Both the position numbers and the translations under genes were made by a program. From an archaeon (lineage in GTDB: Archaea > Iainarchaeota > Iainarchaeia > Iainarchaeales > CSSED10-239), in assembly GCA_041657425.1 (NCBI GenBank), contig JBBABY010000005.1, positions 22,834 to 86,833 of the forward strand: a stretch of DNA of 64,000 bases, read 5' to 3'. This document shows positions 19,457 through 61,824 of the stretch, piece by piece (positions within the stretch are counted from its first letter, which is position 1; each line of letters opens with the position of its first letter). The notes below the pieces were generated by a model. The model was not told the origin of the DNA, made no database searches, and worked only from the letters and a program-made list of their open reading frames with translations.

Positions 19457-21249
19457 TACATATCTTTTACTTCTTTTAAGATCTTTTTAATTTTCTCTTT
19501 AGCAATCATACAAACTGAACCAGGATATTCTGCTCTTAATCTTGAAATTTCAGAAGCAGTAAATATTTGTTCAATTGGTATAACTATTTGCTTAACCTTA
19601 TCAACATCTATGTGATTTAGATCTTTAATATTTAAAGTTCCTTTTGCATCAACATATGTTTTTACGTTTTGATTAGCCGTTGGTTTTTCTTCAATTTCTT
19701 CTTCTCTTGGCTTATTAAAGATTATATGTTCTGGAGCAGTGTTTGTTTTTTTAATTTCTTTTTTATTAATTATAACAGCACCTTTTTCTCTAAGTTCTCT
19801 TTGTTCTTGCCATAATTGTTTTGTTCTTTGTTGTCTTTCATCCAAAAAATCATCTTCTTCTGGATGTATATCAACAATATCAAGAGAAGCAATAGAATGA
19901 ACTTCACCAGTCTGTCCGTTTATTTGAACTTTATCTCCATCAAGTAATTGTTCTGTTCCAAATCTAGTTCCAACAATACATGGTTTATCAAGATCTTTAG
20001 TTATTACTGCTGCATGACATAATGAACTCCCAGCATTAGTAATTACTCCTCTAGCAATTCTCATTGCTCCAACCATGTCTTGATCAGTCATTGCAGTAAC
20101 AATAATTGATTCTGAATTAACTTTTTCAAGATCATTGTAATTCATAATGTTAACAACAATTCCATTAACTGTTCCGTTAGTTACTCCAACACCTTTAATT
20201 AATAATTCACTTTTAAAAGTATTAATTTTTTGTTGTCCACACTTTTTTGTTTTCTCTGCAGTATTTGGATTAACTGCTTCTGAGCCGATAATATAAACAT
20301 CAGCTTTATCAATAGCCCATTCAATTATCTGCGGTGTTCCAAAATATTCTTCTAGTTTTACTGCAGTGTTAGTTAAATCTTTAAGAACGTGAGTATTAAT
20401 TTTAGGTTTTTCTCTTTCGGATTCTTGAACTGCTTCTTTAGCCGTTGCACCTTTCATTCTTTTAAGTTCCCAGTCTTGTCTTGAAACTGTTTTACCAAGA
20501 GTCAAGTATGGTTTCTTTTGTGTTTCGTAATGATCAGGAGTAATTTCTTTAATAACATGAGCTGCTCCAAAACCATAGACTGCTTCAATAACAACAGTGT
20601 TTGGGTCAGTTGCACTTTTACTTGAAATTATTATTCCTGAAGACTTTGCATTAATCATATTTTGAATAATTATTCCAATTCCGAGTCTTTCAATATTAAT
20701 TTCTTTCTTGTGAGCATATTCTAAAACATCAGGACTATAAAGAACACCCCATGTTTCTTTAACTGCTTTAATCATTTCTGGCTTTCCTTTAATGTTTAAA
20801 GATCCGCCTTCTTCTTCAATAAATTTAGTATCACAAACTTCTCCGTCGTCACAAACAACAGAACATCTTATTGCAATATAAGCATCAGCACTGCTTGGAA
20901 GCCAACCACCAGTTGCATCTCCAAGTTTGCCATAATATTTATATAATTCAATTTCTGTTTCTTGATTTAATTTTCCTTTAACAATTAATTGTTTGATTTC
21001 GCTTGATTTAGTTTCAATATCTTCTCTATCACTATAATTTATACTTCTTAAAATTTCAACAATCTTTGGTTTTAAATTATTCATTTGTACAAAATTGAAA
21101 AATTCAGTAGCAGTAACAACAAAACCTCTAGGAACCGTTATCCCTGTGATTGCAAGTTGAGCAAGTCTAGCTGCTTTTCTCCCAATTGTTCTAGAATCAG
21201 TTGAACCAAGTTCTTTAAGCCATCGTATGTTTTCGTAATCCATTCCCAT
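19456..21249 (-). CDS. PEP synthase/pyruvate phosphate dikinase-like protein (ATP-grasp N-domain plus phosphohistidine swivel domain, lacking the PEP/pyruvate TIM-barrel domain)
   Basis: PPDK_N-like N-terminus (TIGRKAARLAQL, GITVPRGFVVT) and mobile-domain motif NAGSSLCHAAVITKDLDKPCIVG; C-terminal 150 aa unrelated. Confidence 0.65.
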   Translation of the reverse strand: MGMDYENIRWLKELGSTDSRTIGRKAARLAQLAITGITVPRGFVVTATEFFNFVQMNNLKPKIVEILRSINYSDREDIETKSSEIKQLIVKGKLNQETEIELYKYYGKLGDATGGWLPSSADAYIAIRCSVVCDDGEVCDTKFIEEEGGSLNIKGKPEMIKAVKETWGVLYSPDVLEYAHKKEINIERLGIGIIIQNMINAKSSGIIISSKSATDPNTVVIEAVYGFGAAHVIKEITPDHYETQKKPYLTLGKTVSRQDWELKRMKGATAKEAVQESEREKPKINTHVLKDLTNTAVKLEEYFGTPQIIEWAIDKADVYIIGSEAVNPNTAEKTKKCGQQKINTFKSELLIKGVGVTNGTVNGIVVNIMNYNDLEKVNSESIIVTAMTDQDMVGAMRIARGVITNAGSSLCHAAVITKDLDKPCIVGTRFGTEQLLDGDKVQINGQTGEVHSIASLDIVDIHPEEDDFLDERQQRTKQLWQEQRELREKGAVIINKKEIKKTNTAPEHIIFNKPREEEIEEKPTANQNVKTYVDAKGTLNIKDLNHIDVDKVKQIVIPIEQIFTASEISRLRAEYPGSVCMIAKEKIKKILKEVKDM

Positions 21250-21334
21250 AATAATTCACATATTTTTAATTTAATCCCAATAATATAATATATATTCTTT
21301 TTAAATCCTTTTTGGTTAAGAAAATGAAATTCCG

Positions 21335-21359
21335 CACTGGACAGCTACCCCCCCGAAAA
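21335..21359 (+). promoter_or_regulatory. GC-rich motif CACTGGACAGCTACCCCC(CC)GAAAA upstream of radA (copy 1)
   Basis: 18-nt core identical to 61187..61204; GC-rich in an AT-rich intergenic region about 80 bp upstream of radA. Confidence 0.4.
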
Positions 21360-21436
21360 TACCCCCCTTTTGAAAAACAATAGTATTATTACCCAAAATA
21401 AAAGGGTTTAAAAGAATAAAAGGAGAGTAGATATTT

Positions 21437-22456
21437 ATGAAGAAGGTAAAGAAGGAAGATAATATGGATGAAGAATTTACTAATGAAGAAGTTTCTGAAA
21501 ATACAGTTGTAGAACCAGGAAAGAATATGTCAATAACTGATTTGCCAGGTATTGGTCCAGCTTCTGCTGAAAAACTTTTAGCTGGGGGTTATGATTCTTT
21601 AGAAGCTATAGCTGTAGCTTCACCTAGTGAACTTGTTGCAGTTGCTGGTATTGGAGAAGGAACTGCAATTAAAGCAATTAAGGCAGCAAGGGATTCATTA
21701 GAAATGGGTTACGAAACTGCAGAAAAGATACTTGACAGAAGAAAATTAATAGCAAGAGTTTCAACTGGTTCAAAGGAGCTTGATGAATTGTTAGGTGGAG
21801 GAATAGAAAGTCAATCAATCACAGAAGTCTATGGAATGTATGCTTCTGGAAAATCACAATGGTGTTTTCAATTATGTGTAATTGCGCAAATGCCTACAGA
21901 GAAGGGTGGGTTAAATGGAGGAGTTCTTTACATTGATACAGAAAACTCATTTAGACCTGAAAGAGTAGCGCAGATTGCAAAGTACAGAGGGCTTGATCCT
22001 GAAGAAGTTATGAAAAATATTTTTGTAGCAAGAGCGTTTAATAGTAATCATCAAATGCTTTTAGCAGATAAGGCGCAAGAACTAATTAAAGAAAAAAATA
22101 TTAAACTTGTAATTGTTGATTCCTTAACAAGTCAATTTCGTTCAGAATTTGTTGGTAGAGGTCAGTTATCAGACAGACAACAAAAACTAAATACTCATAT
22201 GAGATTACTTCAAAAGCTTGCAGAGCTTTATAATGTTGTTGTGTTTGTAACAAACCAAGTAATGTCAAGACCTGATGTTTTGTTTGGAGATCCAACAGAT
22301 GCTATTGGTGGTAACATCGTTAAGCACGCTTCAAAAACAAGAATCTATTTAAGAAAGAGTTCAGGGTCTAAAAGAATTGCAAAGCTAGTAGATTCTCCAA
22401 GCTTACCAGATGGCGAAGCAGTATATCAAGTTACAGAAAATGGAATCACAGATTAG
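21437..22456 (+). CDS. radA: DNA repair and recombination protein RadA
   Basis: N-terminal HhH ([13 protein letters not shown]), Walker A region [14 protein letters not shown], RecA-fold core. Confidence 0.9.
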
Positions 22457-35129: not shown

Positions 35130-36089
35130 ATGAAAAATAATAATTACAAATTAATTACTTTTGCAATAGCGGCATTAGTAATTGGAGCAATACTTAGTAC
35201 ATTACTGATTAGTACAGTAAGTGCAGAAAAGACAGACCTTACAAATATAGATGCTCTTGAAATCACAGATCCAGAATCAAGAACAAATTTAATATTAAAT
35301 TTATTAAAAGTAAATAGAATACAAAATAGAAATAATAATCCATTATTTATTGATTCTAGTAATCAATTATCTATCAATGGAGATACTTATGTAAGTATTT
35401 CATCTCCAAACACTGCAAAATTAGGATCAGGAAATGCAGTAGTTAAAGCATTTGCTAATGGTCAAGAACAACAAGCCGGTTCAAAAGTAGAAATTAATGC
35501 AAATAATTTCTTTGTAGGACATGGTGGACAATCAGTATTTAAAATAATAGGCGGAGCTAACGAATACGGTGCACAATATTCTCAAGTAATAATAGAAACA
35601 GGAGTTCAAATGAACCATTATTTACAAGTTAATAATGGGCTTTATGCAGATGGCGCAAACATAGGCGAACATCATAATCAACCAGCATTACAAATTGTAA
35701 GAAATGGTCAATCCGGCAATTACACTTCAGAAATTACAATTAATGCTCCTACCAGATTTCCTAATCTTTCAGAAGGCGCCACCAATACTGGCGCAATATA
35801 TCATTTAGGAGATACTTTTCTTATAGAAAATTATACTGTAGAAGTTATGAATATTTGGGACGCAAATAACGCAGTTGAAATGCAATTAAGAAATGACGTT
35901 AATGGCATAATTGCAGAAGAAGTCTATAGTGAAGGAGATGCAATCTTTGAAGATTATCTTACCACAACTCTTATAGTAGATGGGATAGACTCAGATAGTG
36001 TAAGTATAGTTATACCATCAGGAAATACATACTATGCCTGTTTAACAGAAGACGGAACACTATTTAGAAGCAATGATCCTTGTAACTAA
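35130..36089 (+). CDS. secreted/surface protein, paralog family member A
   Basis: N-terminal TM/signal; shares module ESRTNLILNLLKVNRIQNR and about 95-aa C-terminal domain (GDTFLIEN...GNTYYAC...DGTLFRSNDPCN) with 37792..38628. Confidence 0.6.
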   Translation: MKNNNYKLITFAIAALVIGAILSTLLISTVSAEKTDLTNIDALEITDPESRTNLILNLLKVNRIQNRNNNPLFIDSSNQLSINGDTYVSISSPNTAKLGSGNAVVKAFANGQEQQAGSKVEINANNFFVGHGGQSVFKIIGGANEYGAQYSQVIIETGVQMNHYLQVNNGLYADGANIGEHHNQPALQIVRNGQSGNYTSEITINAPTRFPNLSEGATNTGAIYHLGDTFLIENYTVEVMNIWDANNAVEMQLRNDVNGIIAEEVYSEGDAIFEDYLTTTLIVDGIDSDSVSIVIPSGNTYYACLTEDGTLFRSNDPCN

Positions 36090-36125: not shown

Positions 36126-36269
36126 CTTATTTTTTCTTTTTATTCTATTTTTAAAAATCAGACAATTTGCAGAAAAAACTTGGCAGAAAGTTAGACAATT
36201 TGATTAAAAAAGTAAGCAATTTATCTAAAATTAGAGATATATTTAAAAACCTTTCGTTATATTATATAT

Positions 36270-37538
36270 TTGATAAATATGTTTGAAATATACAAAATTC
36301 AAAATCAACATTGGGAAAACAAATTATACGATTTACCAATAAAAAGAAAAATTTTAGAAACTTTAAAAAAAGAACTATTAAATCACAAATTAATTATTTC
36401 TATAGAGGGGCCAAGAAGAGTAGGGAAATCTGTTTTAATGAAACAATTGATTAATTATCTTATAGAAAATAAAGTGCCTTCAAAAAACCTATTTTATTTT
36501 TCTTTTGATAAACTTGATAAAAAGATATTAGATACATTAAAGGACTATGAGGAATTGTCCGGAATATCATTAAGAGAAGAAAAAACTTATTTATTTTTTG
36601 ACGAAATTCAAAAGATTAAAGATTGGCAATCAGATATTAAGATAATTTATGATAATTATCCAAATTTAAAAATAATAGTAAGTGGATCTACATTAAGAGT
36701 TAGTAAAAAAGAAAGCCTTGCAGGAAGGATTGTTGATTTTTTTATTAATCCTTTATCTTTCGAAGAATATCTTATATTTTCAGGTAAAGAAAAATTATTA
36801 GATTCAGAAATAGATTATATTTTTGAAAAAGAGTATAATAATTATTTATTTAGGCAATATCCAGATATTGTTTTAAATAAAGAAATAGATTCCACGCAAT
36901 ATATTTCATTAATTCTACAAAAAGTGATTTTTGAAGATTCGGAAAAGTATATTAGAAATGTGGATAAAGATATTTTATACAAAATTTGTATGATTATACT
37001 TAGAGATCCTGGGCAGATTATTAATTATTCTGACTTATCGAAAGATTTAGGTGTGAAAAGAGAAGTTGTTTCAAAATATATTGATTTTTTAGTTAATTCT
37101 GGAGTTGTAAAAAAAGTTTATAATTTTTCAAATAATTCTCGAAAATTAGAGATTAAATCTAAAAAGTTTTATCCGTATTGTACATCACTAACAAGAGCAG
37201 TAACTGATAATCCAGATATGGGTAAGATTATAGAGACTGATGTTTGTTTTCAATTAGATGCAAAATACTTTTTAAATAACAAAGGTAAAGAAGAAATAGA
37301 TTTTCTACTTATAGACCCGATAACTTCTAAAAAGATAGGGGTAGAAGTAAAATATAGAAATTTAATAACAAATAAAGACGTAAGTGCATTTAGATCAGCG
37401 ATAGTTAAAAAGTTAAATTTGGATAAAAGAATAATAATTGTAAAAGCAGAATCAAAATTAGATTTTAATACAAAAGAAATAGTTCCTGTCATGTATTTTA
37501 CAATCTTTAAACACCAATCAGAATTCAAATTTAAATAA
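36270..37538 (+). CDS. AAA+ superfamily ATPase (COG1373-like, AAA_14 plus DUF4143)
   Basis: Walker A GPRRVGKS, Walker B LFFDEIQ; architecture typical of archaeal COG1373 ATPases. Confidence 0.65.
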   Translation: MINMFEIYKIQNQHWENKLYDLPIKRKILETLKKELLNHKLIISIEGPRRVGKSVLMKQLINYLIENKVPSKNLFYFSFDKLDKKILDTLKDYEELSGISLREEKTYLFFDEIQKIKDWQSDIKIIYDNYPNLKIIVSGSTLRVSKKESLAGRIVDFFINPLSFEEYLIFSGKEKLLDSEIDYIFEKEYNNYLFRQYPDIVLNKEIDSTQYISLILQKVIFEDSEKYIRNVDKDILYKICMIILRDPGQIINYSDLSKDLGVKREVVSKYIDFLVNSGVVKKVYNFSNNSRKLEIKSKKFYPYCTSLTRAVTDNPDMGKIIETDVCFQLDAKYFLNNKGKEEIDFLLIDPITSKKIGVEVKYRNLITNKDVSAFRSAIVKKLNLDKRIIIVKAESKLDFNTKEIVPVMYFTIFKHQSEFKFK

Positions 37539-37722
37539 ATAATTCTGGGAAAATATGAACTCGCAAAAAAAGAAAAAAACAAAGAAGTTCTTTGCAGAAT
37601 TAAATAAAAGAAGCATAGAAGCAAAAGATAAATCTAATTTTATTTCTTTAAGGTATTTATAAACACAGTAAAGGCACTCTAATTCTTCCAAACACTTGGA
37701 AAAAACCATATATTTATAAATT

Positions 37723-37736
37723 CCCCCCCCCCCCCC
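37723..37736 (+). repeat. homopolymeric poly-C tract (C14) in promoter region of surface protein gene B
   Basis: 14 consecutive C between TTTATAAA and ATAGATAATATAG, 55 bp upstream of the ATG at 37792; unique in the window. Confidence 0.9.
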
Positions 37737-37791
37737 ATAGATAATATAGTATTAAAAAATTAATTAAAACAAAATTACGGAGGAAATTAAA

Positions 37792-38628
37792 ATGGCAAAA
37801 GAAAATAATAAAAAGCTAATCATTTGGGCGTTAGTCGCTTTAGTGGTTGGTGTAGTAATAGGTCTACTATTAACAAGTATAGTAACAACAGGAAATGCAG
37901 CAACCGCATTAGGTGAAAAATCAGCAACACTTGATACGAAAACCACAGAAGATAATGTAGTTGAATCAAGAACAAACTTAGTATTAAACTTATTAAAAGT
38001 AAATAGAATTGAAAATAGAGACGAAGATTTATTAATTCATGCAAATAGTGGAACTGAACGTCTTATGTTATGGGGAGACACAATGACAAATATTTGGGCT
38101 CCAAGCATAGATATTTCTGGATCTACAGCGGTCGCAATTTCTACACCTGTAAATTTTATAGGATTAGGAACAGATGGTATAAATATTTTTGCTCATAATT
38201 TTATGATTGCTAATTCAGAACAAACTCAAACAAATCCAATAATTTCACTTGATTTAGAAAATTCTGAATTAGTCATAAATGCATCCACTACAAAATTTAT
38301 AAATGTCGTATCTGTAAGTCCAATCATTTCAGAATATAGTGTAGGAGACACATTTACTATAGAAAATAATACTATAGAAGTTGCTGCCATTTGGGATGCA
38401 AATGGAGTAGTTGAAATGCATTTGTTCGATGCAAATATGATAAATCCAATTGTTGAATTTTACGGAGAAGGAGATATAATCTTTAATCAATATTTAACTG
38501 CAAGTTTAAAAGTAGAAAATATTTCTCAAAATGTAGTAGGCATTGTGGTTTTACCAACAGGCAACTCATATTATGCATGTATAGGATCTGATGGAACTTT
38601 GTTTAAAAGTAATTATCCATGTAACTAA
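37792..38628 (+). CDS. secreted/surface protein, paralog family member B
   Basis: N-terminus MAKENNKKLIIWALVALV shared with 50212 and 51300; ESRTNLVLNLLKVNRIENR and YYAC/PCN C-terminal domain shared with 35130. Confidence 0.6.
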   Translation: MAKENNKKLIIWALVALVVGVVIGLLLTSIVTTGNAATALGEKSATLDTKTTEDNVVESRTNLVLNLLKVNRIENRDEDLLIHANSGTERLMLWGDTMTNIWAPSIDISGSTAVAISTPVNFIGLGTDGINIFAHNFMIANSEQTQTNPIISLDLENSELVINASTTKFINVVSVSPIISEYSVGDTFTIENNTIEVAAIWDANGVVEMHLFDANMINPIVEFYGEGDIIFNQYLTASLKVENISQNVVGIVVLPTGNSYYACIGSDGTLFKSNYPCN

Positions 38629-49718: not shown

Positions 49719-50135
49719 ATGTTAAAAATATACTTTGCAGGATCAATTAGTGGTGGAAGAGATGACCAAGAAATCTATTTTGAATTAATAAATTATCTTA
49801 AGACTAAGGGACAAGTTCTAACAGAGCATATTTCAGATAAAAATTTAAGTTCTTATGGCGAGAGCAATAAATTAACTTCTGAGCAAATCTTTACAAGAGA
49901 TGTAAACTGGTTAAAAGAATCAGATATTGTTGTTGCAGAAGTTACTCAAGTTTCTTTAAGTGTTGGTTATGAATTAGGGCTTTCTGAAAGTTTAAATAAA
50001 AAAGTAATTTGCCTATATCGTCAAAAAGAAGGAAAAAGACTTTCAGCAATGATTTCTGGTAACCACAACTTCTTAGTTAAAGAATATCAAACAATAGAAG
50101 AAGCAAAAAGGATTATTGATGAGATTTTCAAATGA
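49719..50135 (+). CDS. 2'-deoxynucleoside 5'-phosphate N-hydrolase (DNPH1/Rcl-like; nucleoside 2-deoxyribosyltransferase fold)
   Basis: IYFAGSISGGRDDQ...VLTEH...DVNWLKESDIVVAEVTQVSLSVGYELG...RLSAMISG closely matches DNPH1/Rcl motifs. Confidence 0.65.
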   Translation: MLKIYFAGSISGGRDDQEIYFELINYLKTKGQVLTEHISDKNLSSYGESNKLTSEQIFTRDVNWLKESDIVVAEVTQVSLSVGYELGLSESLNKKVICLYRQKEGKRLSAMISGNHNFLVKEYQTIEEAKRIIDEIFK

Positions 50136-50138
50136 ACA

Positions 50139-50152
50139 ATATATATATATAT
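50139..50152 (+). repeat. (AT)7 dinucleotide repeat in promoter of surface protein gene C
   Basis: ATATATATATATAT; the paralogous position upstream of gene D has (AT)6. Confidence 0.85.
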
Positions 50153-50211
50153 TTCGTTCATTCATTCTATTAAATTACAATTAAATAATTAAAAAATTGG
50201 AGGAAACCAAA

Positions 50212-51162
50212 ATGGCAAAAGAAAATAATAAAAAGCTAATCATTTGGGCATTAGTAGCTTTAGTGATTGGTGTAATAATAGGGTTAGTAATAACAAACCT
50301 GACAACAACAGGAAAAGGGGGTTATATCTCTGAAATTCACCAGATTCGTCCAAAAACACAGGTTGGGATAACTATGCCTATTCCAATTTATTTGGAGTTA
50401 GTTCAAGAAATAGATAGTGTTAATGGTGGAACAGGTACTATTAATAAGTATGCGTTTATTGAAAACGAAGAATTTCACTCTAATTTACCCGGGAAAGTTA
50501 GAAAAAATACCACCGTCAACTTTTCTGATGGCACAGTATTATCTGACGATTATACTTCAGAATTAGAGTATTCTGCATATTATTCAGAATATATTGCAGG
50601 AACCTTTTTTGGTCCATTTACTTCAATAGAGGCTACTATATATGATATGAAAGTAACTTCTATAATTGATGCACACTTTAAAATAGGTTCTAAAATAATA
50701 CCTAAATCATTAACAACTGTATTTAATCCGAATGAAGATTTATTTGCAGTAGTTAATAGTCTTGATTTAGATTGTAGTGGTCAATATAATCTAACACATT
50801 CAGAAGTAGGAGATATTGATGAAATATCTGGGAATTTATATATTTCTCAATATAATCAAGGCACCGGTTGGACTAATGTTTTACAGGATTACCCTTTAGA
50901 TTTAACCTCGTCAGCAGATAATACCTATACAGGATATATTCCAGCATCTGCAATAACTCAGTTAAACAATGGAAGTCAGTACATTAGAGTGTCGATTAAT
51001 AGTCACATTATTACTGCAACAGGATTACAAACAAGTGCAGAAATGCACAAATATCTAAATTGTCAAACCAATAAATCTGAATCATTAACTCCTGAAGAAA
51101 TAAAGGACGTGAGAAAGATAACAGGCTATAAATCAATAGATGAAAGAGCAAAAATAAAATAA
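50212..51162 (+). CDS. secreted/surface protein, paralog family member C
   Basis: N-terminus MAKENNKKLIIWALVALVIGV shared with genes B and D; C-terminal YLNCQ motif shared with D; start moved to the ATG at 50212 after the GGAGG RBS (track ORF begins at 50197). Confidence 0.6.
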   Translation: MAKENNKKLIIWALVALVIGVIIGLVITNLTTTGKGGYISEIHQIRPKTQVGITMPIPIYLELVQEIDSVNGGTGTINKYAFIENEEFHSNLPGKVRKNTTVNFSDGTVLSDDYTSELEYSAYYSEYIAGTFFGPFTSIEATIYDMKVTSIIDAHFKIGSKIIPKSLTTVFNPNEDLFAVVNSLDLDCSGQYNLTHSEVGDIDEISGNLYISQYNQGTGWTNVLQDYPLDLTSSADNTYTGYIPASAITQLNNGSQYIRVSINSHIITATGLQTSAEMHKYLNCQTNKSESLTPEEIKDVRKITGYKSIDERAKIK

Positions 51163-51230
51163 GTTCTAACTACACAAAATGAGATTATTTAATTAATCTT
51201 ATTTTTCTTTTTCTTTTTTCTTAAGCGGCA

Positions 51231-51242
51231 ATATATATATAT
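51231..51242 (+). repeat. (AT)6 dinucleotide repeat in promoter of surface protein gene D
   Basis: ATATATATATAT inside a ~175-bp block near-identical to 50139..50317. Confidence 0.85.
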
Positions 51243-51299
51243 CGTTCATTCATTCTATTAAATTACAATTAAATAATTAAAAAATTGGAGGAAACCAAA

Positions 51300-52247
51300 A
51301 TGGCAAAAGAAAATAAAAAATCATTAATCATTTGGGCATTAGTAGCTTTAGTGATTGGTGTAATATTAGGATTAGTAATAACAAATTTATCAACAACAGG
51401 ACAAGCAAAATCTATAACAGAGGTTGCGCCAAGAACATTAATTGGCACGGGATATAATTTTGTATTATATCAAAATATGAGTTTTGAAAATCCAAATGGA
51501 GAATATCTTTTATGGACGCAAGAAAACTTACAATCTAATGTTCCTGCAAGAATTAAAAAAGAATCTTCAATGTCATATAATTTAGACGATTTCAGACCAT
51601 ACTTTCTTAATTCTTCTATAACTAATACAGAAAGAGCAGAAAATAGCAATTTAGGTTATGCTGCATATCCAGAAACTGTTTTATGGTTTCCAAACACAAC
51701 AAACACCCCCACCGTGTCCTATTCTTATTTTACAGAATGGACTTTTGGTAATGGAGTGACTAAAACAGAAGGTACTGGTTATTCAGTAAATGAAAATTAT
51801 AATTCATTTATAGAAGCAAGTTCTTTAAATGTAAATTGTTCTAATTATGAACTTGTTCATTCTACCCCTACGGGAATTAATTATCTTGGATATCAATTCT
51901 ATATATATGATACAACTTACAATTATGATCAAGTTTATTACGGGTCTTGGATAGAAGCAAGAATAAATCCTAACGGTATTCAACAAGGAAATTTGCCACA
52001 AGAGGCAATAGATATATTGCAAAATAATAATGGATATGAGGGAGTATTGATTGCACATATATCTACTACCGAGAATATGTATACTGTGGTTTACAGTGCT
52101 AATACTTATTTAAATTGTCAAAATGGCGCAATTACTAAATTAAATTCTGATGGTTTACAAAAATTACAACAAAAAACAGGAACTCCAATAGACGTAATAA
52201 AAAAATTACATGAAGAAGGTAAGATGCCTTTTACAGTACAAAAATAA
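51300..52247 (+). CDS. secreted/surface protein, paralog family member D
   Basis: Same 5' block as gene C (signal/anchor region identical at the DNA level), divergent body, YLNCQ C-terminal motif; start moved to the ATG at 51300 after the GGAGG RBS (track ORF begins at 51285). Confidence 0.6.
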   Translation: MAKENKKSLIIWALVALVIGVILGLVITNLSTTGQAKSITEVAPRTLIGTGYNFVLYQNMSFENPNGEYLLWTQENLQSNVPARIKKESSMSYNLDDFRPYFLNSSITNTERAENSNLGYAAYPETVLWFPNTTNTPTVSYSYFTEWTFGNGVTKTEGTGYSVNENYNSFIEASSLNVNCSNYELVHSTPTGINYLGYQFYIYDTTYNYDQVYYGSWIEARINPNGIQQGNLPQEAIDILQNNNGYEGVLIAHISTTENMYTVVYSANTYLNCQNGAITKLNSDGLQKLQQKTGTPIDVIKKLHEEGKMPFTVQK

Positions 52248-52260
52248 AATCAACTAGATT

Positions 52261-53928
52261 TTATTTTTCTTTTTCTTTTTTTTCTTTAGCTTTTTTTACA
52301 AATTCTACAAACAACGGGTGTGGAGTAAGTAGCTTTGATTTAAGTTCAGGGTGTGCTTGTGTTCCAATAAAGAAAGGATGTTTCTTAATTTCAATAAATT
52401 CAAGAAGTTCTCCAGTTGGGTCCATTCCACAAAGCACAAGTCCTTTTTCTTTCAAGATTGAATGATACTTTGGATTAACTTCATATCTATGTCTGTGTCT
52501 TTCAGTAATTTTGTTTTTACCATATATTTTTGCAACCTGTGATCCATCTTGTAATTCAGCAACACAAGACCCAAGCCTCATGCTTCCACCAATCTTTTTA
52601 TTTTCTTGACCAGGAAGGATAGTAACAATTGGTTCTTTACAATCTTTGTCAATTTCTGTTGTGTGTGCCTCAGGCAGTCCACAAACATTTCTTGCATACT
52701 CAATAACAGCAAGTTGCATTCCGTAGCAAAGTCCTAAGTAAGGAACATTATTTTCTCTAGCATATCTAATAATATTTAATTTTCCATTAATTCCTCTAGC
52801 TCCAAAACCACCAGGAACAATAATTCCATCAAGTTCTTTAATTTCTGGAGAGTTGGAAACGCCATCTTCTTCATATTTCTCAGTATCAATAAGTCTAATT
52901 TCTAAAGATTCAGATACTGTGGTTTTAGCATGATGTAAGGCTTCAATAACTGAAGCATAAGAGTCGTCAATACCGGTGTATTTTCCACATATGCCAATAA
53001 CAATTTTTTCTTTAGTTCCAGTTTCTATCTTTTTAACTGCTTCAATAAATTTATCGAATTCTAAATTAGTATTTATTTTTAATTTCTTAGAAATGAGTTT
53101 ATCTAGTTTTTGATTTTTAAAATTAATCGGTATTTCGTAAATATTTTTAACATCACAACCAGAGATTAATTGTTCAGGTAGTAGTGCACAATTTTCAGTA
53201 AGTTTCTCAATAGCCTTCTTATCAAGCATCCGCTTTGCTCTACAGATGACTGCGTCAGGAATAATTCCTCTTTTAAGTAATTCAGCAATACTATTTTGTG
53301 CAGGTTTAGTTTTCTGTTCATCGCTTGGTGCAATTTCAGGAACATAAGCGAGATGTACAAAAAAAACATTTTCTTTTCCAAGTTTTCTTCTAATTCCTTT
53401 ACAAGCAGTAATGTACAATTCATTTTCTAAATCTCCAACAGTTCCTCCAATTTCAAGAAGTACAATGTTTGCATCATTATCAAGTGCAGTTTTAATAACT
53501 CTATATTCTATGTAATTAGTAACTTCTGGTATTAACTTTACAGTTTTTCCTAAAAAAGCTCCGCTTCTCTCTAAGTCAATTATTTCTTTGTAGATTTTTC
53601 CCATTGTTAGGTTCTGAGATCCATTACAAGAAATATCTAAATATCTTTCATAATGTCCAAAATCCATATCCACTTCTGTTCCATCATCAAGAACAAAAAC
53701 TTCTCCGTGTTCCACAGGGTTCATAGTCCCTGGATCAAAATTAAGATAACCATCACATTTGATTGGTATTTTCTTAAGATCATTATCTAAAAGAAGAGCA
53801 ATACTAGAAGCAGAAACTCCTTTACCAATCCCAGAAAGCACTCCGCCAGTAATTATTACAAATTTTAGTTTCTTGTCAATTGCTTGACTATAAATATCAT
53901 TAGTTTCTTTATAATCCATAAATCTCAT
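52261..53928 (-). CDS. pyrG: CTP synthase
   Basis: N-terminal synthetase domain (ITGGVLSGIGKG) and C-terminal class I glutamine amidotransferase (GLCYGMQ, HRHRYEVN). Confidence 0.9.
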   Translation of the reverse strand: MRFMDYKETNDIYSQAIDKKLKFVIITGGVLSGIGKGVSASSIALLLDNDLKKIPIKCDGYLNFDPGTMNPVEHGEVFVLDDGTEVDMDFGHYERYLDISCNGSQNLTMGKIYKEIIDLERSGAFLGKTVKLIPEVTNYIEYRVIKTALDNDANIVLLEIGGTVGDLENELYITACKGIRRKLGKENVFFVHLAYVPEIAPSDEQKTKPAQNSIAELLKRGIIPDAVICRAKRMLDKKAIEKLTENCALLPEQLISGCDVKNIYEIPINFKNQKLDKLISKKLKINTNLEFDKFIEAVKKIETGTKEKIVIGICGKYTGIDDSYASVIEALHHAKTTVSESLEIRLIDTEKYEEDGVSNSPEIKELDGIIVPGGFGARGINGKLNIIRYARENNVPYLGLCYGMQLAVIEYARNVCGLPEAHTTEIDKDCKEPIVTILPGQENKKIGGSMRLGSCVAELQDGSQVAKIYGKNKITERHRHRYEVNPKYHSILKEKGLVLCGMDPTGELLEFIEIKKHPFFIGTQAHPELKSKLLTPHPLFVEFVKKAKEKKEKEK

Positions 53929-54205: not shown

Positions 54206-54288
54206 GCAGAGATGGCGGAGTGGCCAAACGCGCCAGCCTTGAGAGCTGGAGTCGAAAGACTACGCGAGTTCGAATCTCGTTCTCTGCG
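54206..54288 (+). tRNA. tRNA-Ser (TGA)
   Basis: Acceptor GCAGAGA/TCTCTGC, anticodon stem CCAGC/GCTGG with loop CTTGAGA, long variable arm, T-arm GCGAG-TTCGAAT-CTCGT. Confidence 0.85.
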
Positions 54289-54312
54289 CTTAAAATTGTT
54301 AAAAGATCATTT

Positions 54313-55070: not shown

Positions 55071-55153
55071 GCAGAGGTGGTGGAGTGGTCAAACGCACTA
55101 GCCTGGAAAGCTAGAGTCGAAAGACTACGCGAGTTCGAATCTCGTCCTCTGCG
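55071..55153 (+). tRNA. tRNA-Ser (GGA)
   Basis: Acceptor GCAGAGG/CCTCTGC, anticodon stem CTAGC/GCTAG with loop CTGGAAA, long variable arm, same T-arm as tRNA-Ser(TGA). Confidence 0.85.
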
Positions 55154-55369
55154 ATTAAATTTAGATCAACAGTTTGCTGTAAGTGAGCTTGTAGACTGGA
55201 TTAAAGGCAAGAAGCTCGCCCACGACTACGAAACAGGACTAATTTCTAAAATCCCGCTAATCTTCGAAGATACTCAAAAACATACGTACGTTTCTGAAAA
55301 GTGTTCTCAACAAAATCTTTTTAAATACAATATACAATAACTATTTATAGAAATAAAGTGTGATAAAAA

Positions 55370-56047
55370 ATGGTTGTAAGAAAATTAACAAAAGGCAGTT
55401 TCCCAAATGCAAAAAATATTAAGAGCATTAAAATAGGAGGTCGTAAATTCGTTGCAGAAAAGAAACAGACAGCAGACATAAAACTAGAAATAAATAAAGA
55501 AAAAATTAAAATAATCAGTTCTTTAAAAAAACGTCTAGAGAGAGGAGAATTAAAATTAACCAGTGCCGATTTAATGAAATTAAAGGCACAGGGAATTAGC
55601 CTGATTGAATTAAGAAAAGTAATAGCTCCAGAATATTTGTTAAAAACTTTGAGTTTAAAAGCATTTGTAAAAATATATGGTCAAGAAGATGTAGTTAAGG
55701 CTTTTAATGGTATTTCCCGATTAATATTTGATGCTGGTTTGAGGGAGACAGTTTATGCTATTGATCCAAAATATTTTAAAAATGAATTTTCATTAAAAGA
55801 AATTGTGAATAAGCTTTTTAAATACGGCTACAAGGATGTGTCACAGTATAGGGCCCCAGATATGCAAAGCTATATGTCACAAAATGGACGTTATGAAGTA
55901 GCAAAGGCTTGGGGGCTTAAGAATATAATAGAAACATTTGGGATTAAAGAGACTATGGTGGCTATGGGTAGATCAGAATCTGAACTTAGATCTTTATTAA
56001 ATGCATCAGATTACGATTTAGGGAAAGCTTTTCCTCGCGAATATTAG
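55370..56047 (+). CDS. hypothetical protein (islet segment 1)
   Basis: 225 aa, no family recognised; its TAG stop is formed by the first bases of the att-like repeat. Confidence 0.4.
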   Translation: MVVRKLTKGSFPNAKNIKSIKIGGRKFVAEKKQTADIKLEINKEKIKIISSLKKRLERGELKLTSADLMKLKAQGISLIELRKVIAPEYLLKTLSLKAFVKIYGQEDVVKAFNGISRLIFDAGLRETVYAIDPKYFKNEFSLKEIVNKLFKYGYKDVSQYRAPDMQSYMSQNGRYEVAKAWGLKNIIETFGIKETMVAMGRSESELRSLLNASDYDLGKAFPREY

Positions 56048-56090
56048 AGTCTCACGACTACGCGAGTTCGAATCTCGTCCTCTGCGATTT
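56047..56090 (+). repeat. direct repeat of tRNA-Ser(GGA) 3' end (att-like, copy 1)
   Basis: GACTACGCGAGTTCGAATCTCGTCCTCTGCGATT is identical to 55120..55153 plus 2 nt. Confidence 0.85.
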
Positions 56091-56111
56091 TTTATTTTGT
56101 GTTTAAATTGC

Positions 56112-59292: not shown

Positions 59293-59372
59293 GTAACTTT
59301 CTTTTTTATTTTTTTAGTAAGCGGCTAGTGAAAGAATGTGACTTGCAAAAAAGTATCGGTACTAGAATGCGA

Positions 59373-59415
59373 GAGTCTCACGACTACTCGATTTCGAATC
59401 TAGTCTTATGCAATT
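59373..59415 (+). repeat. degenerate direct repeat of tRNA-Ser 3' end (att-like, copy 2)
   Basis: GAGTCTCACGACTACTCGATTTCGAATCTAGTCTTATGCAATT; 6 mismatches over the 34-nt tRNA-derived part. Confidence 0.7.
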
Positions 59416-59538
59416 CAATTCTAAGTAAGCATTTTGCGGCAAGTTGATTTGTATCGCGTGCATTGACTAAATTGTTTTAGATATATTTTTAAATTAGTTC
59501 TTATTAGTATATTTAGATTTTTATAAAGGAGGAATAAT

Positions 59539-60073: not shown

Positions 60074-60724
60074 ATGAATAATGAGCCAGTAACTAATACA
60101 AATAAAGAATATCCTAAAAAAAAAGGGATATCTGTCAAATTTTTAATATCTCTTGGTATAATTTTAATAATTATAATTTTGGCAGTTATTTTGGTTTCCA
60201 AAGCAATATATAATAGAGATATTAGTACAAATATAAATAATTTTGATGAATGTATTGAGGCAGGAAATCCCGTAGTTGCGGGGACTTATCCTATACAATG
60301 TAAAACACTAGACGGAAAACTATTTATTTCTACTTCAGATAATATTGAGAATAAACCTAAGCATGTTGATGATTTAATATTTGTAGAAAGACAAGCAACT
60401 AATTTTGAGGAATGTTTAAACTGGGGTTTCGTTTCCCAAGGTTATCCTGAATATTGTACAGATGGGAATTCTACATTTATTAATCCTAAACATACAAGTG
60501 CTCCAACACTAGCAGAACAACAGATTTGTAATACTGATAGCGAATGTACAGGACTGCCAAATCCTTGTCATAGAACAAGGGTATGTATTAATAAAAAGTG
60601 GGTGTCTTTTTACAAAATTAAGCCAGCAGCGTGTACTTTAGAAATAGATCTTTTAGCAGTGTCTCCTGGAGATTGTGTTTGTCTAAATACAGTCTGTACA
60701 AATAAGAAGTTAATTCAAAGTTAG
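60074..60724 (+). CDS. secreted Cys-rich protein with internal duplication
   Basis: N-terminal TM anchor; duplicated module FDECIEAGNP...YPIQCKT / FEECLNWGF...YPEYCTDG; 14 Cys; its TAG stop is supplied by the att-like repeat. Confidence 0.45.
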   Translation: MNNEPVTNTNKEYPKKKGISVKFLISLGIILIIIILAVILVSKAIYNRDISTNINNFDECIEAGNPVVAGTYPIQCKTLDGKLFISTSDNIENKPKHVDDLIFVERQATNFEECLNWGFVSQGYPEYCTDGNSTFINPKHTSAPTLAEQQICNTDSECTGLPNPCHRTRVCINKKWVSFYKIKPAACTLEIDLLAVSPGDCVCLNTVCTNKKLIQS

Positions 60725-60767
60725 AGTCTCATGACTACGCAAGTTCGAATCTCGCCATCTGCGAATT
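60723..60767 (+). repeat. direct repeat of tRNA-Ser 3' end (att-like, copy 3)
   Basis: AGAGTCTCATGACTACGCAAGTTCGAATCTCGCCATCTGCGAATT; 4 mismatches over the tRNA-derived part. Confidence 0.75.
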
Positions 60768-60798
60768 ATTATTTAATAAACTATTTTGTGAAAAAAAC

Positions 60799-61186: not shown

Positions 61187-61209
61187 CACTGGACAGCTAC
61201 CCCCGAAAA
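61187..61209 (+). promoter_or_regulatory. GC-rich motif CACTGGACAGCTACCCCCGAAAA upstream of DEDD exonuclease gene (copy 2)
   Basis: 18-nt core identical to 21335..21352 upstream of radA; 31 bp before the ATG at 61240. Confidence 0.4.
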
Positions 61210-61239
61210 CTTTAAACACTATTTCTTTCATAGTTATTT

Positions 61240-61824
61240 ATGAATTACTTATATGTAGATATCGAAACTGTTCCTGTGGATAAGGAAAAACATTTATCTC
61301 TAGATGAAGAGGAAAGAAAGAAACTCTTAAATCCAATTGATTCAAAAATTATTGCAATCGGTCTAAAGTCAACTAAAGATAATAAGCTAGTCATTCTTCA
61401 ATCTGATAATGAAAAGGAAATGTTAACTGAATTTTGGAAGATTTACGACAATTTTAGAGCAAATAGTTCTTTAACAAACAAGATTGTGGGCTTTAACATT
61501 AAGCAGTTTGATATTTCTTTTTTAGTGACTAGAAGCTTTGTTAATGGAGTTACAGTTGTTCCTTTCGTCTTAAAAGAGATAATCGACATTAGAGACCTAT
61601 TAACTTGCTTTAAAAGAGGGCCAACAAGAGGCACTTTAAAGGAATTTGGAGAGATTATTGGCGTGGTCTTAGTAGAAGACATGGACGGCTCAAAAGTGGC
61701 TGAAACTTACTGGTCAGGAAATATTGATTTAATCAAGACTTACTTAGCAAAAGACATAGAATTAACTGAAAAGATTCACAACAAGGTAATGGAACTAGGA
61801 CTAGACAAAATAAGAGAATGGTGA
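61240..61824 (+). CDS. DEDD-type 3'-5' exonuclease (PolB-exo-like, RNase H fold)
   Basis: Exo I YVDIETVP (D-x-E), Exo II VGFNIKQFDISFL, C-terminal Y-x3-D region (YLAKDIELT). Confidence 0.6.
   Translation: MNYLYVDIETVPVDKEKHLSLDEEERKKLLNPIDSKIIAIGLKSTKDNKLVILQSDNEKEMLTEFWKIYDNFRANSSLTNKIVGFNIKQFDISFLVTRSFVNGVTVVPFVLKEIIDIRDLLTCFKRGPTRGTLKEFGEIIGVVLVEDMDGSKVAETYWSGNIDLIKTYLAKDIELTEKIHNKVMELGLDKIREW

Follow-up and report, generated by a model that had tools for sequence, protein, structure and literature searches.

Phase variation by means of sequence repeats is characteristic of bacteria that live in association with hosts. In the vlp, vsp and vpma families of Mycoplasma (M. hyorhinis, M. bovis and M. 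agalactiae), the 5′ untranslated region (UTR) and the signal-peptide region are conserved while the mature parts of the proteins vary (PMC2268961), and for the vlp genes it is stated there, with reference to Citti and Wise (1995), that a homopolymer in the promoter slips in length and that transcription is thereby turned on or off. In Haemophilus hifA/hifB and in Neisseria porA and opc, the repeats are (TA)n, poly-G and poly-C, respectively, and lie in the core promoters of genes for surface proteins (PMC3899988). The present analysis concerns a stretch of 64,000 nucleotides (the window) from an archaeon of the phylum Iainarchaeota (GenBank assembly GCA_041657425.1, contig JBBABY010000005.1, positions 22,834 to 86,833), where two tandem genes, here called C and D, are preceded by nearly the same 5′ block, with a run of seven AT units in front of C and of six in front of D. 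In the reading that we regard as probable, but far from settled, C and D are paralogues and belong to a family of many genes, whose products are secreted or anchored at the surface, with modular 5′ cassettes that carry unstable repeats and take part in recombination, and with an effect of these repeats on expression that we infer.

Two further systems are of interest for the comparison. The VARTIG modules of Thermococcales encode secreted proteins with immunoglobulin (Ig) domains, which recombine between strains and species in heavily shuffled loci (PMC8416519), and in the system described in PMC8295292, an upstream G/C homopolymer of strain-variable length exerts a graded control rather than an on/off control. 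Archaea have been named as a future direction for phase-variation surveys in a 2025 review (PMC11868660), and no description of archaeal promoter-repeat loci was found in the literature searched, the coverage of which was incomplete. By analogy, the closest functional counterparts of the family described below would be the variable lipoprotein families of Mycoplasma, followed by the promoter-repeat loci of Haemophilus and Neisseria.

Gene C (50212..51162, 316 amino acids, identical to protein P0001) and gene D (51300..52247, 315 amino acids) are both on the + strand, as are their promoter elements and tails and, further below, genes A and B, the promoter of B and the ATPase gene. A repeat search of the window returned a direct repeat of 175 nt (50143-50317 versus 51231-51405) with 93% ungapped identity, which bears out an earlier note on this DNA, where near-identical blocks before the two genes had been reported. 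As also described there, the block of C starts with (AT)7 followed by TT (50139..50154, with (AT)7 at 50139-50152), which is a candidate TATA element, and the block of D with (AT)6 (51231..51242). Between the end of the AT-run and the ATG, 57 of 57 bases match, so that the noncoding block of C, CGTTCATTC...GGAGGAAACCAAA (50155..50211), recurs unchanged in front of D (51243..51299); it contains a second TATA-like element, TATTAAAT, and the Shine-Dalgarno sequence GGAGG (50199-50203 in C, 51287-51291 in D). The first 105 coding nucleotides, i.e., codons 1-35 (50212-50316 and 51300-51404), are 88.6% identical with 12 differences, and past codon 35 the nucleotide identity drops to about 35-60%, compared with a random expectation of about 29%. 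A 55-nt core pointed out in the earlier note occurs in exactly two copies in the window, where 100 shuffles give an expectation of 0, and among dinucleotide repeats in the 64 kb the (AT)7 and (AT)6 runs rank first and second in length, a run of at least six AT units being present in no shuffle. Gene C is followed by an oligo-T/TTTTTC-rich tail (51198..51222), a probable archaeal terminator, and gene D by a near-identical oligo-T tail (52260..52287).

The tandem structure recurs in L001, a 13.4-kb contig assembled independently from a second sample, which is 99.978% identical to the window with zero gaps and in which the tandem arrangement is repeated base for base, with gene order kept and (AT)7 and (AT)6 unchanged. 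The bodies of the two genes do not diverge completely, as had been claimed: when the bodies alone are compared by BLASTP, there is 23% identity over 294 amino acids (E = 4e-9), and C and D are old paralogues with a shared, predicted all-beta fold. What the earlier note missed is that the C/D block is one case of a lineage-wide family cassette, with genes A and B of the window included, and that B has a C14 tract at the corresponding place in its promoter. Homologous runs of 4-10 units occupy the matching position in other family promoters. At gene C only, a longer imperfect palindrome, AATGAACA-(AT)7-TTCGTTCATT (50131-50162, 89% complementary), is centred on the AT-run; here the stop-codon region of the upstream gene happens to mirror the conserved CGTTCATT.

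Loci of the family were obtained from collections of genomes and metagenomes, which were scanned for the DNA pattern that encodes the helix of the leader; the upstream DNA was then extracted, and further loci were added through exact-protein look-ups. The promoters can be divided into two classes, in both of which 48-63 nt separate the end of the repeat from the ATG, with (AT)4-10 in at least nine loci and C9-17 in at least nine. In class AT, the 5′ part consists of (AT)n CGG(T/C)T and about 9 pyrimidine-rich nucleotides, often preceded by TTGGAC ... CCGAAGG, and the 3′ part of the second TATA-like element, about 25 nt, GGAG, about 8 nt and the ATG. The motif CCGAAGG, which resembles a B recognition element (BRE), abuts the AT-run in L002, L003, L009, L012, L017 and L041, and a TTGGAC-like word is seen about 25 nt upstream of several family AT-runs. 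The number of AT units is 4 in L009, 6 in gene D of the window, L002 and L042, 7 in gene C, L017/L022 and L046, 8 in L003, L025 and L041, 9 in L023/L037-39, and 10 in L012.

In class C, the layout is ATATATTTATAAAA(T), Cn, ATTAATAATATAC...GGAGGAAACCAAAATG, with the poly-C tract directly behind a TTTATAAA box. It is represented in the window by gene B (37792..38628, 278 amino acids), whose promoter (37713..37736) has the TTTATAAA box at 37713-37720, then TT, and then a C14 tract at 37723-37736, which is the longest G/C homopolymer in this window of 29% GC. The tract is C9 in L025, C10 in L004, C12 in L036, C14 in gene B, L040 and L044, C15 in L021, C11-C17 in the locus of protein P0007, and C9TC4 in L016. 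Class C noncoding DNA is 81-93% identical between genomes, where the flanking housekeeping genes are only about 75-85% identical. Contingency loci have their repeat in the promoter or the 5′ coding region, and the same placement is found here, where the runs of C and D end 59 and 57 nt, respectively, and the tract of B 55 nt before the ATG.

The coding part of the cassette is an N-terminal leader of about 37 amino acids, MAKENKKSLIIWALVALVIGV..TTGxAK, which is common to the family and which, in other contigs, is found on both types of body. Its consensus is M(A)K(E/K)N.K(K/S/T)LIIWA(L/V)VALVIGV.IG..ITN..TTG(N/Q/K/E/D)AK. In gene B, 27 of 37 leader residues are identical to those of C, and the body is homologous to that of gene A, not to those of C and D; gene A (35130..36089, 319 amino acids), which is paralogous to B (36% identity, E = 6e-40), has a divergent leader and a promoter without repeat. 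When the modules of B, C and D were combined into a profile for an exhaustive HMMER search of 1.84 billion representatives, 116 clusters (50%-identity representatives) were matched at E ≤ 1e-3 and 28 at E ≤ 1e-10, always at residues ~1-41 of proteins with about 40 to 800 amino acids, many of them small and Cys-rich; a word-indexed search with the 41-residue module gave few fragments. One genome among the matches has been assigned by binning to Ca. Iainarchaeum (phylum Iainarchaeota, kingdom Nanobdellati, DPANN), and in the preferred reading the family is specific to a DPANN archaeal lineage. The context of the window, with genes for proteasome alpha, Rrp4/41/42 and prefoldin and 29% GC, is archaeal. 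Inspected by eye, the leader may be of Sec type, with 3-4 Lys in the n-region, an h-region of about 22 residues, which is long enough for a permanent anchor, and G-x-A before K. The motif behind the helix, with G in position -3, A in position -1 and then K, fits a signal-peptidase I site. A lipobox cysteine after the hydrophobic helix was found in no member of the family, TTG-x-A-K standing in its place.

A helix of similar type, TIIWAIVALV(V/I)GV, is present in proteins of 100-113 amino acids with Cys from two contigs, L007 (6746-7048) and L013 (minus strand). These contigs are GC-richer, one is binned as Berkelbacteria (Candidate Phyla Radiation, CPR), and in L013 a run of G9 lies 12 nt in front of the start codon; the likeness could be due to convergence, misbinning or transfer.

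To see what has happened to the cassettes, consider gene D in relation to its closest orthologue, P0004 in L036, and to its paralogue C. The orthologue is preceded by a poly-C promoter (C12). Between D and the orthologue, nucleotide identity is 86% in the body, 91% in the 3′ flank and 89% (88.6%) in the module, but only 62% from -57 to -21. Between D and C, it is 100% upstream, 89% (88.6%) in the module and 52% in the body. From the mismatch in promoter class ahead of an 86%-identical body follows that the promoter of D, or that of its orthologue in L036, has been replaced. The gene conversion that the earlier note had proposed thus gains support, since D is 100% identical to C over positions -57..-1 and only 62% identical to its own orthologue over -57..-21. 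The comparison favours the view that the 5′ block of D has been kept identical to that of C by recombination and not by descent, and C and D have been homogenised very recently in the window genome over at least the 57 noncoding and the first 17 coding bases. That identical promoters stand before 23%-identical bodies would then be the result of exchange or homogenisation of cassettes by recombination or gene conversion.

A further case of exchange concerns gene B. A gene for an AAA_14/DUF4143 ATPase (36279..37538) lies directly upstream of the cassette of B, and the unit made up of ATPase, poly-C promoter and module (36236-37899) is 84% identical at the nucleotide level to L024, with 89% amino acid identity for the ATPase. 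In L024, this unit is fused to a body of the C/D type (P0007) and adjoins CTP synthase, the site that C and D have in the window, and the homology between window and L024 stops at the 3′ edge of the module. In short-read data from relatives, the cassette or the poly-C tract is repeatedly the place where contigs stop (L005/18, L010, L014, L024, L025, L030, L033, L036 and L045), with breaks within the cassette in at least five assemblies, as would be expected for a repeat that is multi-copy and heterogeneous.

Some further observations were made on the surroundings of the cassettes. The ATPase is found directly upstream of a family gene in three contexts: in front of gene B in the window (36279-37538), at the P0007 locus (L026 1489-2748, 89% amino acid identity to the window ATPase) and at the P0124 locus (L041 133-1392, a 26%-identical paralogue). 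It was considered as a functional partner of the family, but the evidence stops at this recurrent linkage; it could be a linked partner or a piece of a mobile two-gene unit. Furthermore, a family gene and its cassette can be 100% identical in nucleotide sequence between strains that differ by up to about 4-6% in the adjacent genes, as when L026 2944-3915 is compared with L026 3927-5579 across L027-L035, the neighbour being CTP synthase, or L046 602-1566 with L046 7-601, the neighbour being the gene upstream of P0009, homologous to the DUF1015 gene of the window. This pattern suggests locus-specific sweeps or transfer from strain to strain, in contigs that were picked by exact protein match and are thus subject to ascertainment. 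Toxin-antitoxin pairs of ribbon-helix-helix (RHH)/ParE type lie beside family genes in L040 (1448-1934), L044 (1185-1673), L045 (1136-1624) and L046 (1753-1968), within the variable interval between DUF4349 and CTP synthase, which fits a recombination hot spot.

Variation in repeat length between strains can be followed most closely at the P0007 locus. More than 10 contigs, from different samples, encode an identical P0007 protein, and the tract, complete in 8 of them, reads C13, C11, C13, C10AC4, C17, C16, C13 and C11. Over 971 nt downstream there are 0 substitutions in 7 contigs (5 of the 8 with complete tract and 2 that start in or after the tract), and of the other contigs with complete tract one has 20 substitutions and one has 10 in the 243 nt present. 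The T8 runs in these contigs are constant, and indels recur at no site other than the poly-C tract. At the P0013 locus, C14 is found versus C9TC4. Gene B has C14 in the window versus C15 in L021, which is 100% identical downstream (about 165 nt) and 99.2% identical over the 2.2-kb contig, the mismatches in L021 being seen just upstream of the tract, where the immediately adjacent sequence has diverged. L021 is the whole population sample for gene B, because a look-up of its protein (P0012) in the contig index gave no further contigs. Among the AT-runs, (AT)8 in L041 corresponds to (AT)6 in L042, the two being 99.3% identical, and (AT)7 in L046 to (AT)8 in L025, where this difference is the sole gap in 1,981 nt at 98.5% identity. 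All these tract lengths are those of consensus assemblies. As judged from these assemblies, the repeats are mutational hot spots, strongly so for poly-C and moderately so for (AT)n. The sequences compared here show a modular family with repeat-bearing promoter cassettes, exchange of these cassettes and polymorphism of the repeats between strains.

Two observations concern the contigs themselves. When window positions 37640-37722 are aligned with L021, identity is about 75% in the 70 nt upstream of the tract and 100% downstream, and L021 is without the TTTATAAA box; the break at the poly-C tract results either from recombination at this point or from a chimera at the end of the contig. At other contig ends (L024 13735-13830 and the upstream ends of L028 and L044), promoters and first codons occur in variants rich in A/T homopolymers (ATGGA17 in L024), which look like low-coverage assembly noise.

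How could repeat length influence expression? In an archaeal core promoter, the TATA box is centred about 26 nt upstream of the transcription start, and a purine-rich BRE is placed just upstream of the TATA box. In class AT, the (AT)n run, next to the BRE-like CCGAAGG, would be the TATA box, and transcription is then predicted to start about 40-45 nt before the ATG and to yield a leader that includes GGAGG; the alternative, in which the downstream TATA-like element is used, would put the start too near the Shine-Dalgarno sequence in promoters of the L002 type. In class C, with TTTATAAA as TATA box, the start would be a few bases past the tract, and the C-run would fill the promoter from roughly -20 to -7, within the region where the strands have to separate. 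A longer tract would then impede opening of the promoter and would shift the start site, so that the repeat would work as a rheostat and not as a strict switch. The relevant change would thus be, for poly-C, in the G+C content and length of the stretch from TATA box to start and, for (AT)n, in the register of the TATA box in relation to the start site. In the proposed family build, a 5′ cassette made up of promoter, a GGAGG-containing leader some 45-50 nt long and the signal/anchor module of about 37 amino acids ending in TTG-x-A-K would be followed by a diversified body, and homologous recombination or gene conversion would exchange and homogenise the cassettes between paralogues and between strains. 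The outcome would be variation in surface make-up from cell to cell, a functional analogue of bacterial contingency loci, and it is plausible that repeat length switches or tunes the transcription of individual family members in this way.

The same repeats may, however, be neutral. The (AT)n run would then be just the TATA box of the family and the poly-C tract a tolerated spacer, slippage would have no regulatory consequence, and the identity between C and D would reflect conversion or constraint. We find this explanation rather unlikely, but a number of points weigh in its favour or against the preferred reading. The number of AT units is the same in 3 of 5 near-identical comparisons (window-L001, L017-L022 and L037/38/39). 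The suggestion, made in the earlier note, of a slippage-prone TATA-like repeat holds at the level of the family, where the runs have 4-10 units and where 8 versus 6 and 7 versus 8 units occur in near-identical strains, but not for the runs of C and D themselves, which are identical in L001, the single independent assembly. For poly-C, homopolymers longer than 10 are error-prone in short-read assemblies, and part of the spread could be technical. As far as we know, archaeal promoters have no -35/-10 spacer, and a change in length need not turn a promoter off; since the start is measured from the TATA box, extra units may shift it by a few bases only. Each cassette has two TATA-like elements, either of which may be the one in use. 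Members of the family without promoter repeat exist as a minority (gene A, L006, L008, L010, L011, L019, L020 and L043). Finally, the link between repeat length and transcription is one that we infer purely from sequence.

The points against extend to the recombination argument. Module similarity between D and C equals that between D and its orthologue (88.6% in each case), so the conservation of the module may mostly reflect constraint at the protein level, and identical residues have identical codons at 24 of 28 positions in the module versus 45 of 70 in the body (p = 0.049), which is a weak conversion signal. Because this codon test is borderline, the claim of conversion rests on the noncoding block and on the contrast between orthologue and paralogue.

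What makes neutrality hard to accept is, first, that tracts of C14-C17 in a genome of 29% GC are difficult to keep without selection and, second, that both repeat types are conserved in position, but not in length, from genome to genome. Third, long repeats are almost confined to the promoters of the family: the 231.5 kb of window and loci contain 30 runs of C≥9 or (AT)≥6, 29 of which are within 220 nt upstream of a module gene and the sole exception is 13 nt from a contig end, a figure that is inflated because the loci beyond the window were selected for containing family genes. In the window, which was not chosen for the family, the promoters of B, C and D hold the three longest repeats (3/3).

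A different account of the conserved helix, compatible with what has been said about the promoters, is that the leader is a type IV pilin-like (class III) module and that the genes encode major and minor pilins, in which the helix would be conserved for filament packing. A short charged N-terminus, followed by a very conserved hydrophobic helix of about 22 residues on variable globular bodies, is what pilins would look like, and such conservation of the helix is unusual for an ordinary Sec signal peptide. The archaeal prepilin-peptidase (class III) site is, however, [K/R/D/E][G/A] directly before the hydrophobic helix. All family members that were inspected have K, S or T in this position, never G or A, and for this reason the module was not filed as a class III signal and membership in that class was rejected. 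With, in addition, a conserved TTG-x-A-K behind the helix that fits a signal-peptidase I site and no significant pilin match in Pfam or NCBIfam, we judge the pilin account to be improbable.

It is very improbable that the cassettes serve switching between an expression site and silent copies, where alternative copies would be brought to a single active promoter by inversion or duplicative transposition. The shared 5′ block could indeed be a recombination anchor, and bodies have been swapped behind orthologous cassettes over evolutionary time. Yet the expression-site-like arrangement that the earlier note had envisaged finds no support in the make-up of the locus: C and D each have a full promoter block, GGAGG, ATG, open reading frame and oligo-T tail, B also has its own promoter, Shine-Dalgarno sequence, start codon and terminator-like tail, and no promoterless copies were seen. 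A search for inverted repeats flanking the promoters gave only low-complexity A/T matches and no invertible element, and there is no recombinase among the neighbouring genes scanned against Pfam, so that there is no sign of inversion or of an expression site; gene order, moreover, is unchanged in L001. That the duplicated block is an assembly artefact, a collapsed or duplicated repeat, can practically be dismissed, for although several short-read assemblies of relatives break within the cassette and the repeat is thus difficult to assemble, the independent assembly carries the same tandem pair base for base, and the bodies of C and D are distinct, each with distinct homologues elsewhere.

With the preferred reading of repeat-bearing, recombining cassettes in mind, the family can be placed beside the described systems. 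It is like the Mycoplasma families in being a multigene family of surface proteins in a reduced-genome, host-associated organism and in having a 5′ UTR and a signal-peptide-coding region that are conserved family-wide. It is unlike them in its archaeal BRE/TATA promoter without -35/-10 spacer, in having TTG-x-A-K instead of a lipobox Cys, in bodies without internal tandem repeats, and in the lack of an invertible promoter and, among the neighbours scanned, of a recombinase; also, the switching of expression described for vlp would be a prediction for the archaeal family. With the Haemophilus and Neisseria loci it shares a dinucleotide or G/C homopolymer of strain-variable length in the core promoter, as predicted for the archaeon; there, the repeat sets the spacing between the -35 and -10 elements of a sigma-70 promoter, whereas the archaeal repeat is, or abuts, the predicted TATA box. 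The VARTIG loci resemble it as archaeal loci for secreted Ig-like proteins diversified by recombination, but their variable part is the C-terminal Ig domain of a large protein in an operon-like module, and neither a conserved 5′ promoter/leader cassette nor promoter repeats have been described for them. The system in PMC8295292 could serve as a model, provided that transcription includes the poly-C tract, but it acts post-transcriptionally through a small RNA, and neither such an RNA nor a leader structure was found here by Rfam scan and folding.

The leaders of both classes, the C block included, show no RNA structure beyond that of shuffled sequences, and the idea of a riboregulator was dropped for this reason; the Rfam scan gave tRNAs only and no leader family. 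Searches of the proteins A-D against Pfam, NCBIfam and PDB sequences gave nothing significant and thus no homology to VARTIG, and within genes A-D Tandem Repeats Finder returned only trivial two-copy units of 8-12 nt. A nine-member alignment of the C/D family, in which two cysteines are invariant, gave an AlphaFold model (pLDDT 73.6, pTM 0.67) with an N-terminal helix (residues 6-31), an all-beta body in tandem beta-sandwich-like halves and C-terminal helices, which is the build modelled for gene D. The best Foldseek matches of this model are tandem fibronectin type III (FnIII)/Ig-like sandwiches (RbmA, transglutaminase beta-barrels, C3 MG domains) with E of about 3e-5 and TM-scores of only about 0.24-0.3, so the predicted fold is of a generic extracellular or adhesion type, and the body of C is likewise predicted to be extracellular.

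Elsewhere in the window, a motif CACTGGACAGCTACCCCC(CC)GAAAA, with C7 and C6 runs, is found upstream of two unrelated genes, at ~21335-21367 in the divergent intergenic region 21249-21437 and at ~61187-61211 before the gene at 61240, and could be a regulatory element that the two have in common. A 54-nt sequence resembling the 3′ half of tRNA-Ser occurs in five copies that are 74-100% identical (54246-54299, 55111-55164, 56044-56097, 59370-59423 and 60721-60774), of which ARAGORN or Rfam calls only two as tRNA-Ser genes; the other three may represent split tRNAs or tRNAs with introns, or else what is left of integration sites.

The block in front of C and D thus opens up a system that is larger than two genes. 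Our more far-reaching proposal, which we put forward tentatively and to which we give somewhat less than even chances, is that this surface family of DPANN archaea is the first described contingency-locus system in archaea, with stochastic switching or tuning of individual members by slippage of (AT)n and poly-C tracts in BRE/TATA promoters and with the cassettes as portable anchors for recombination, through which bodies and promoters would be reshuffled inside strains and from one strain to another. The leader, found in 116 clusters, is in any case a sequence tag by which candidate secreted and surface proteins of the lineage can be mined. An attached way of life, on other cells, is assumed for DPANN archaea, and contact would most naturally be made through their surface proteins. 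If the proposal is true, slippage would act on a eukaryote-like promoter with TATA box and transcription factor B (TFB), and not on a sigma-70 spacer, and the combination of repeat cassettes, a conserved secretion/anchor leader and shuffled bodies would point to bet-hedging at the archaeal cell surface.

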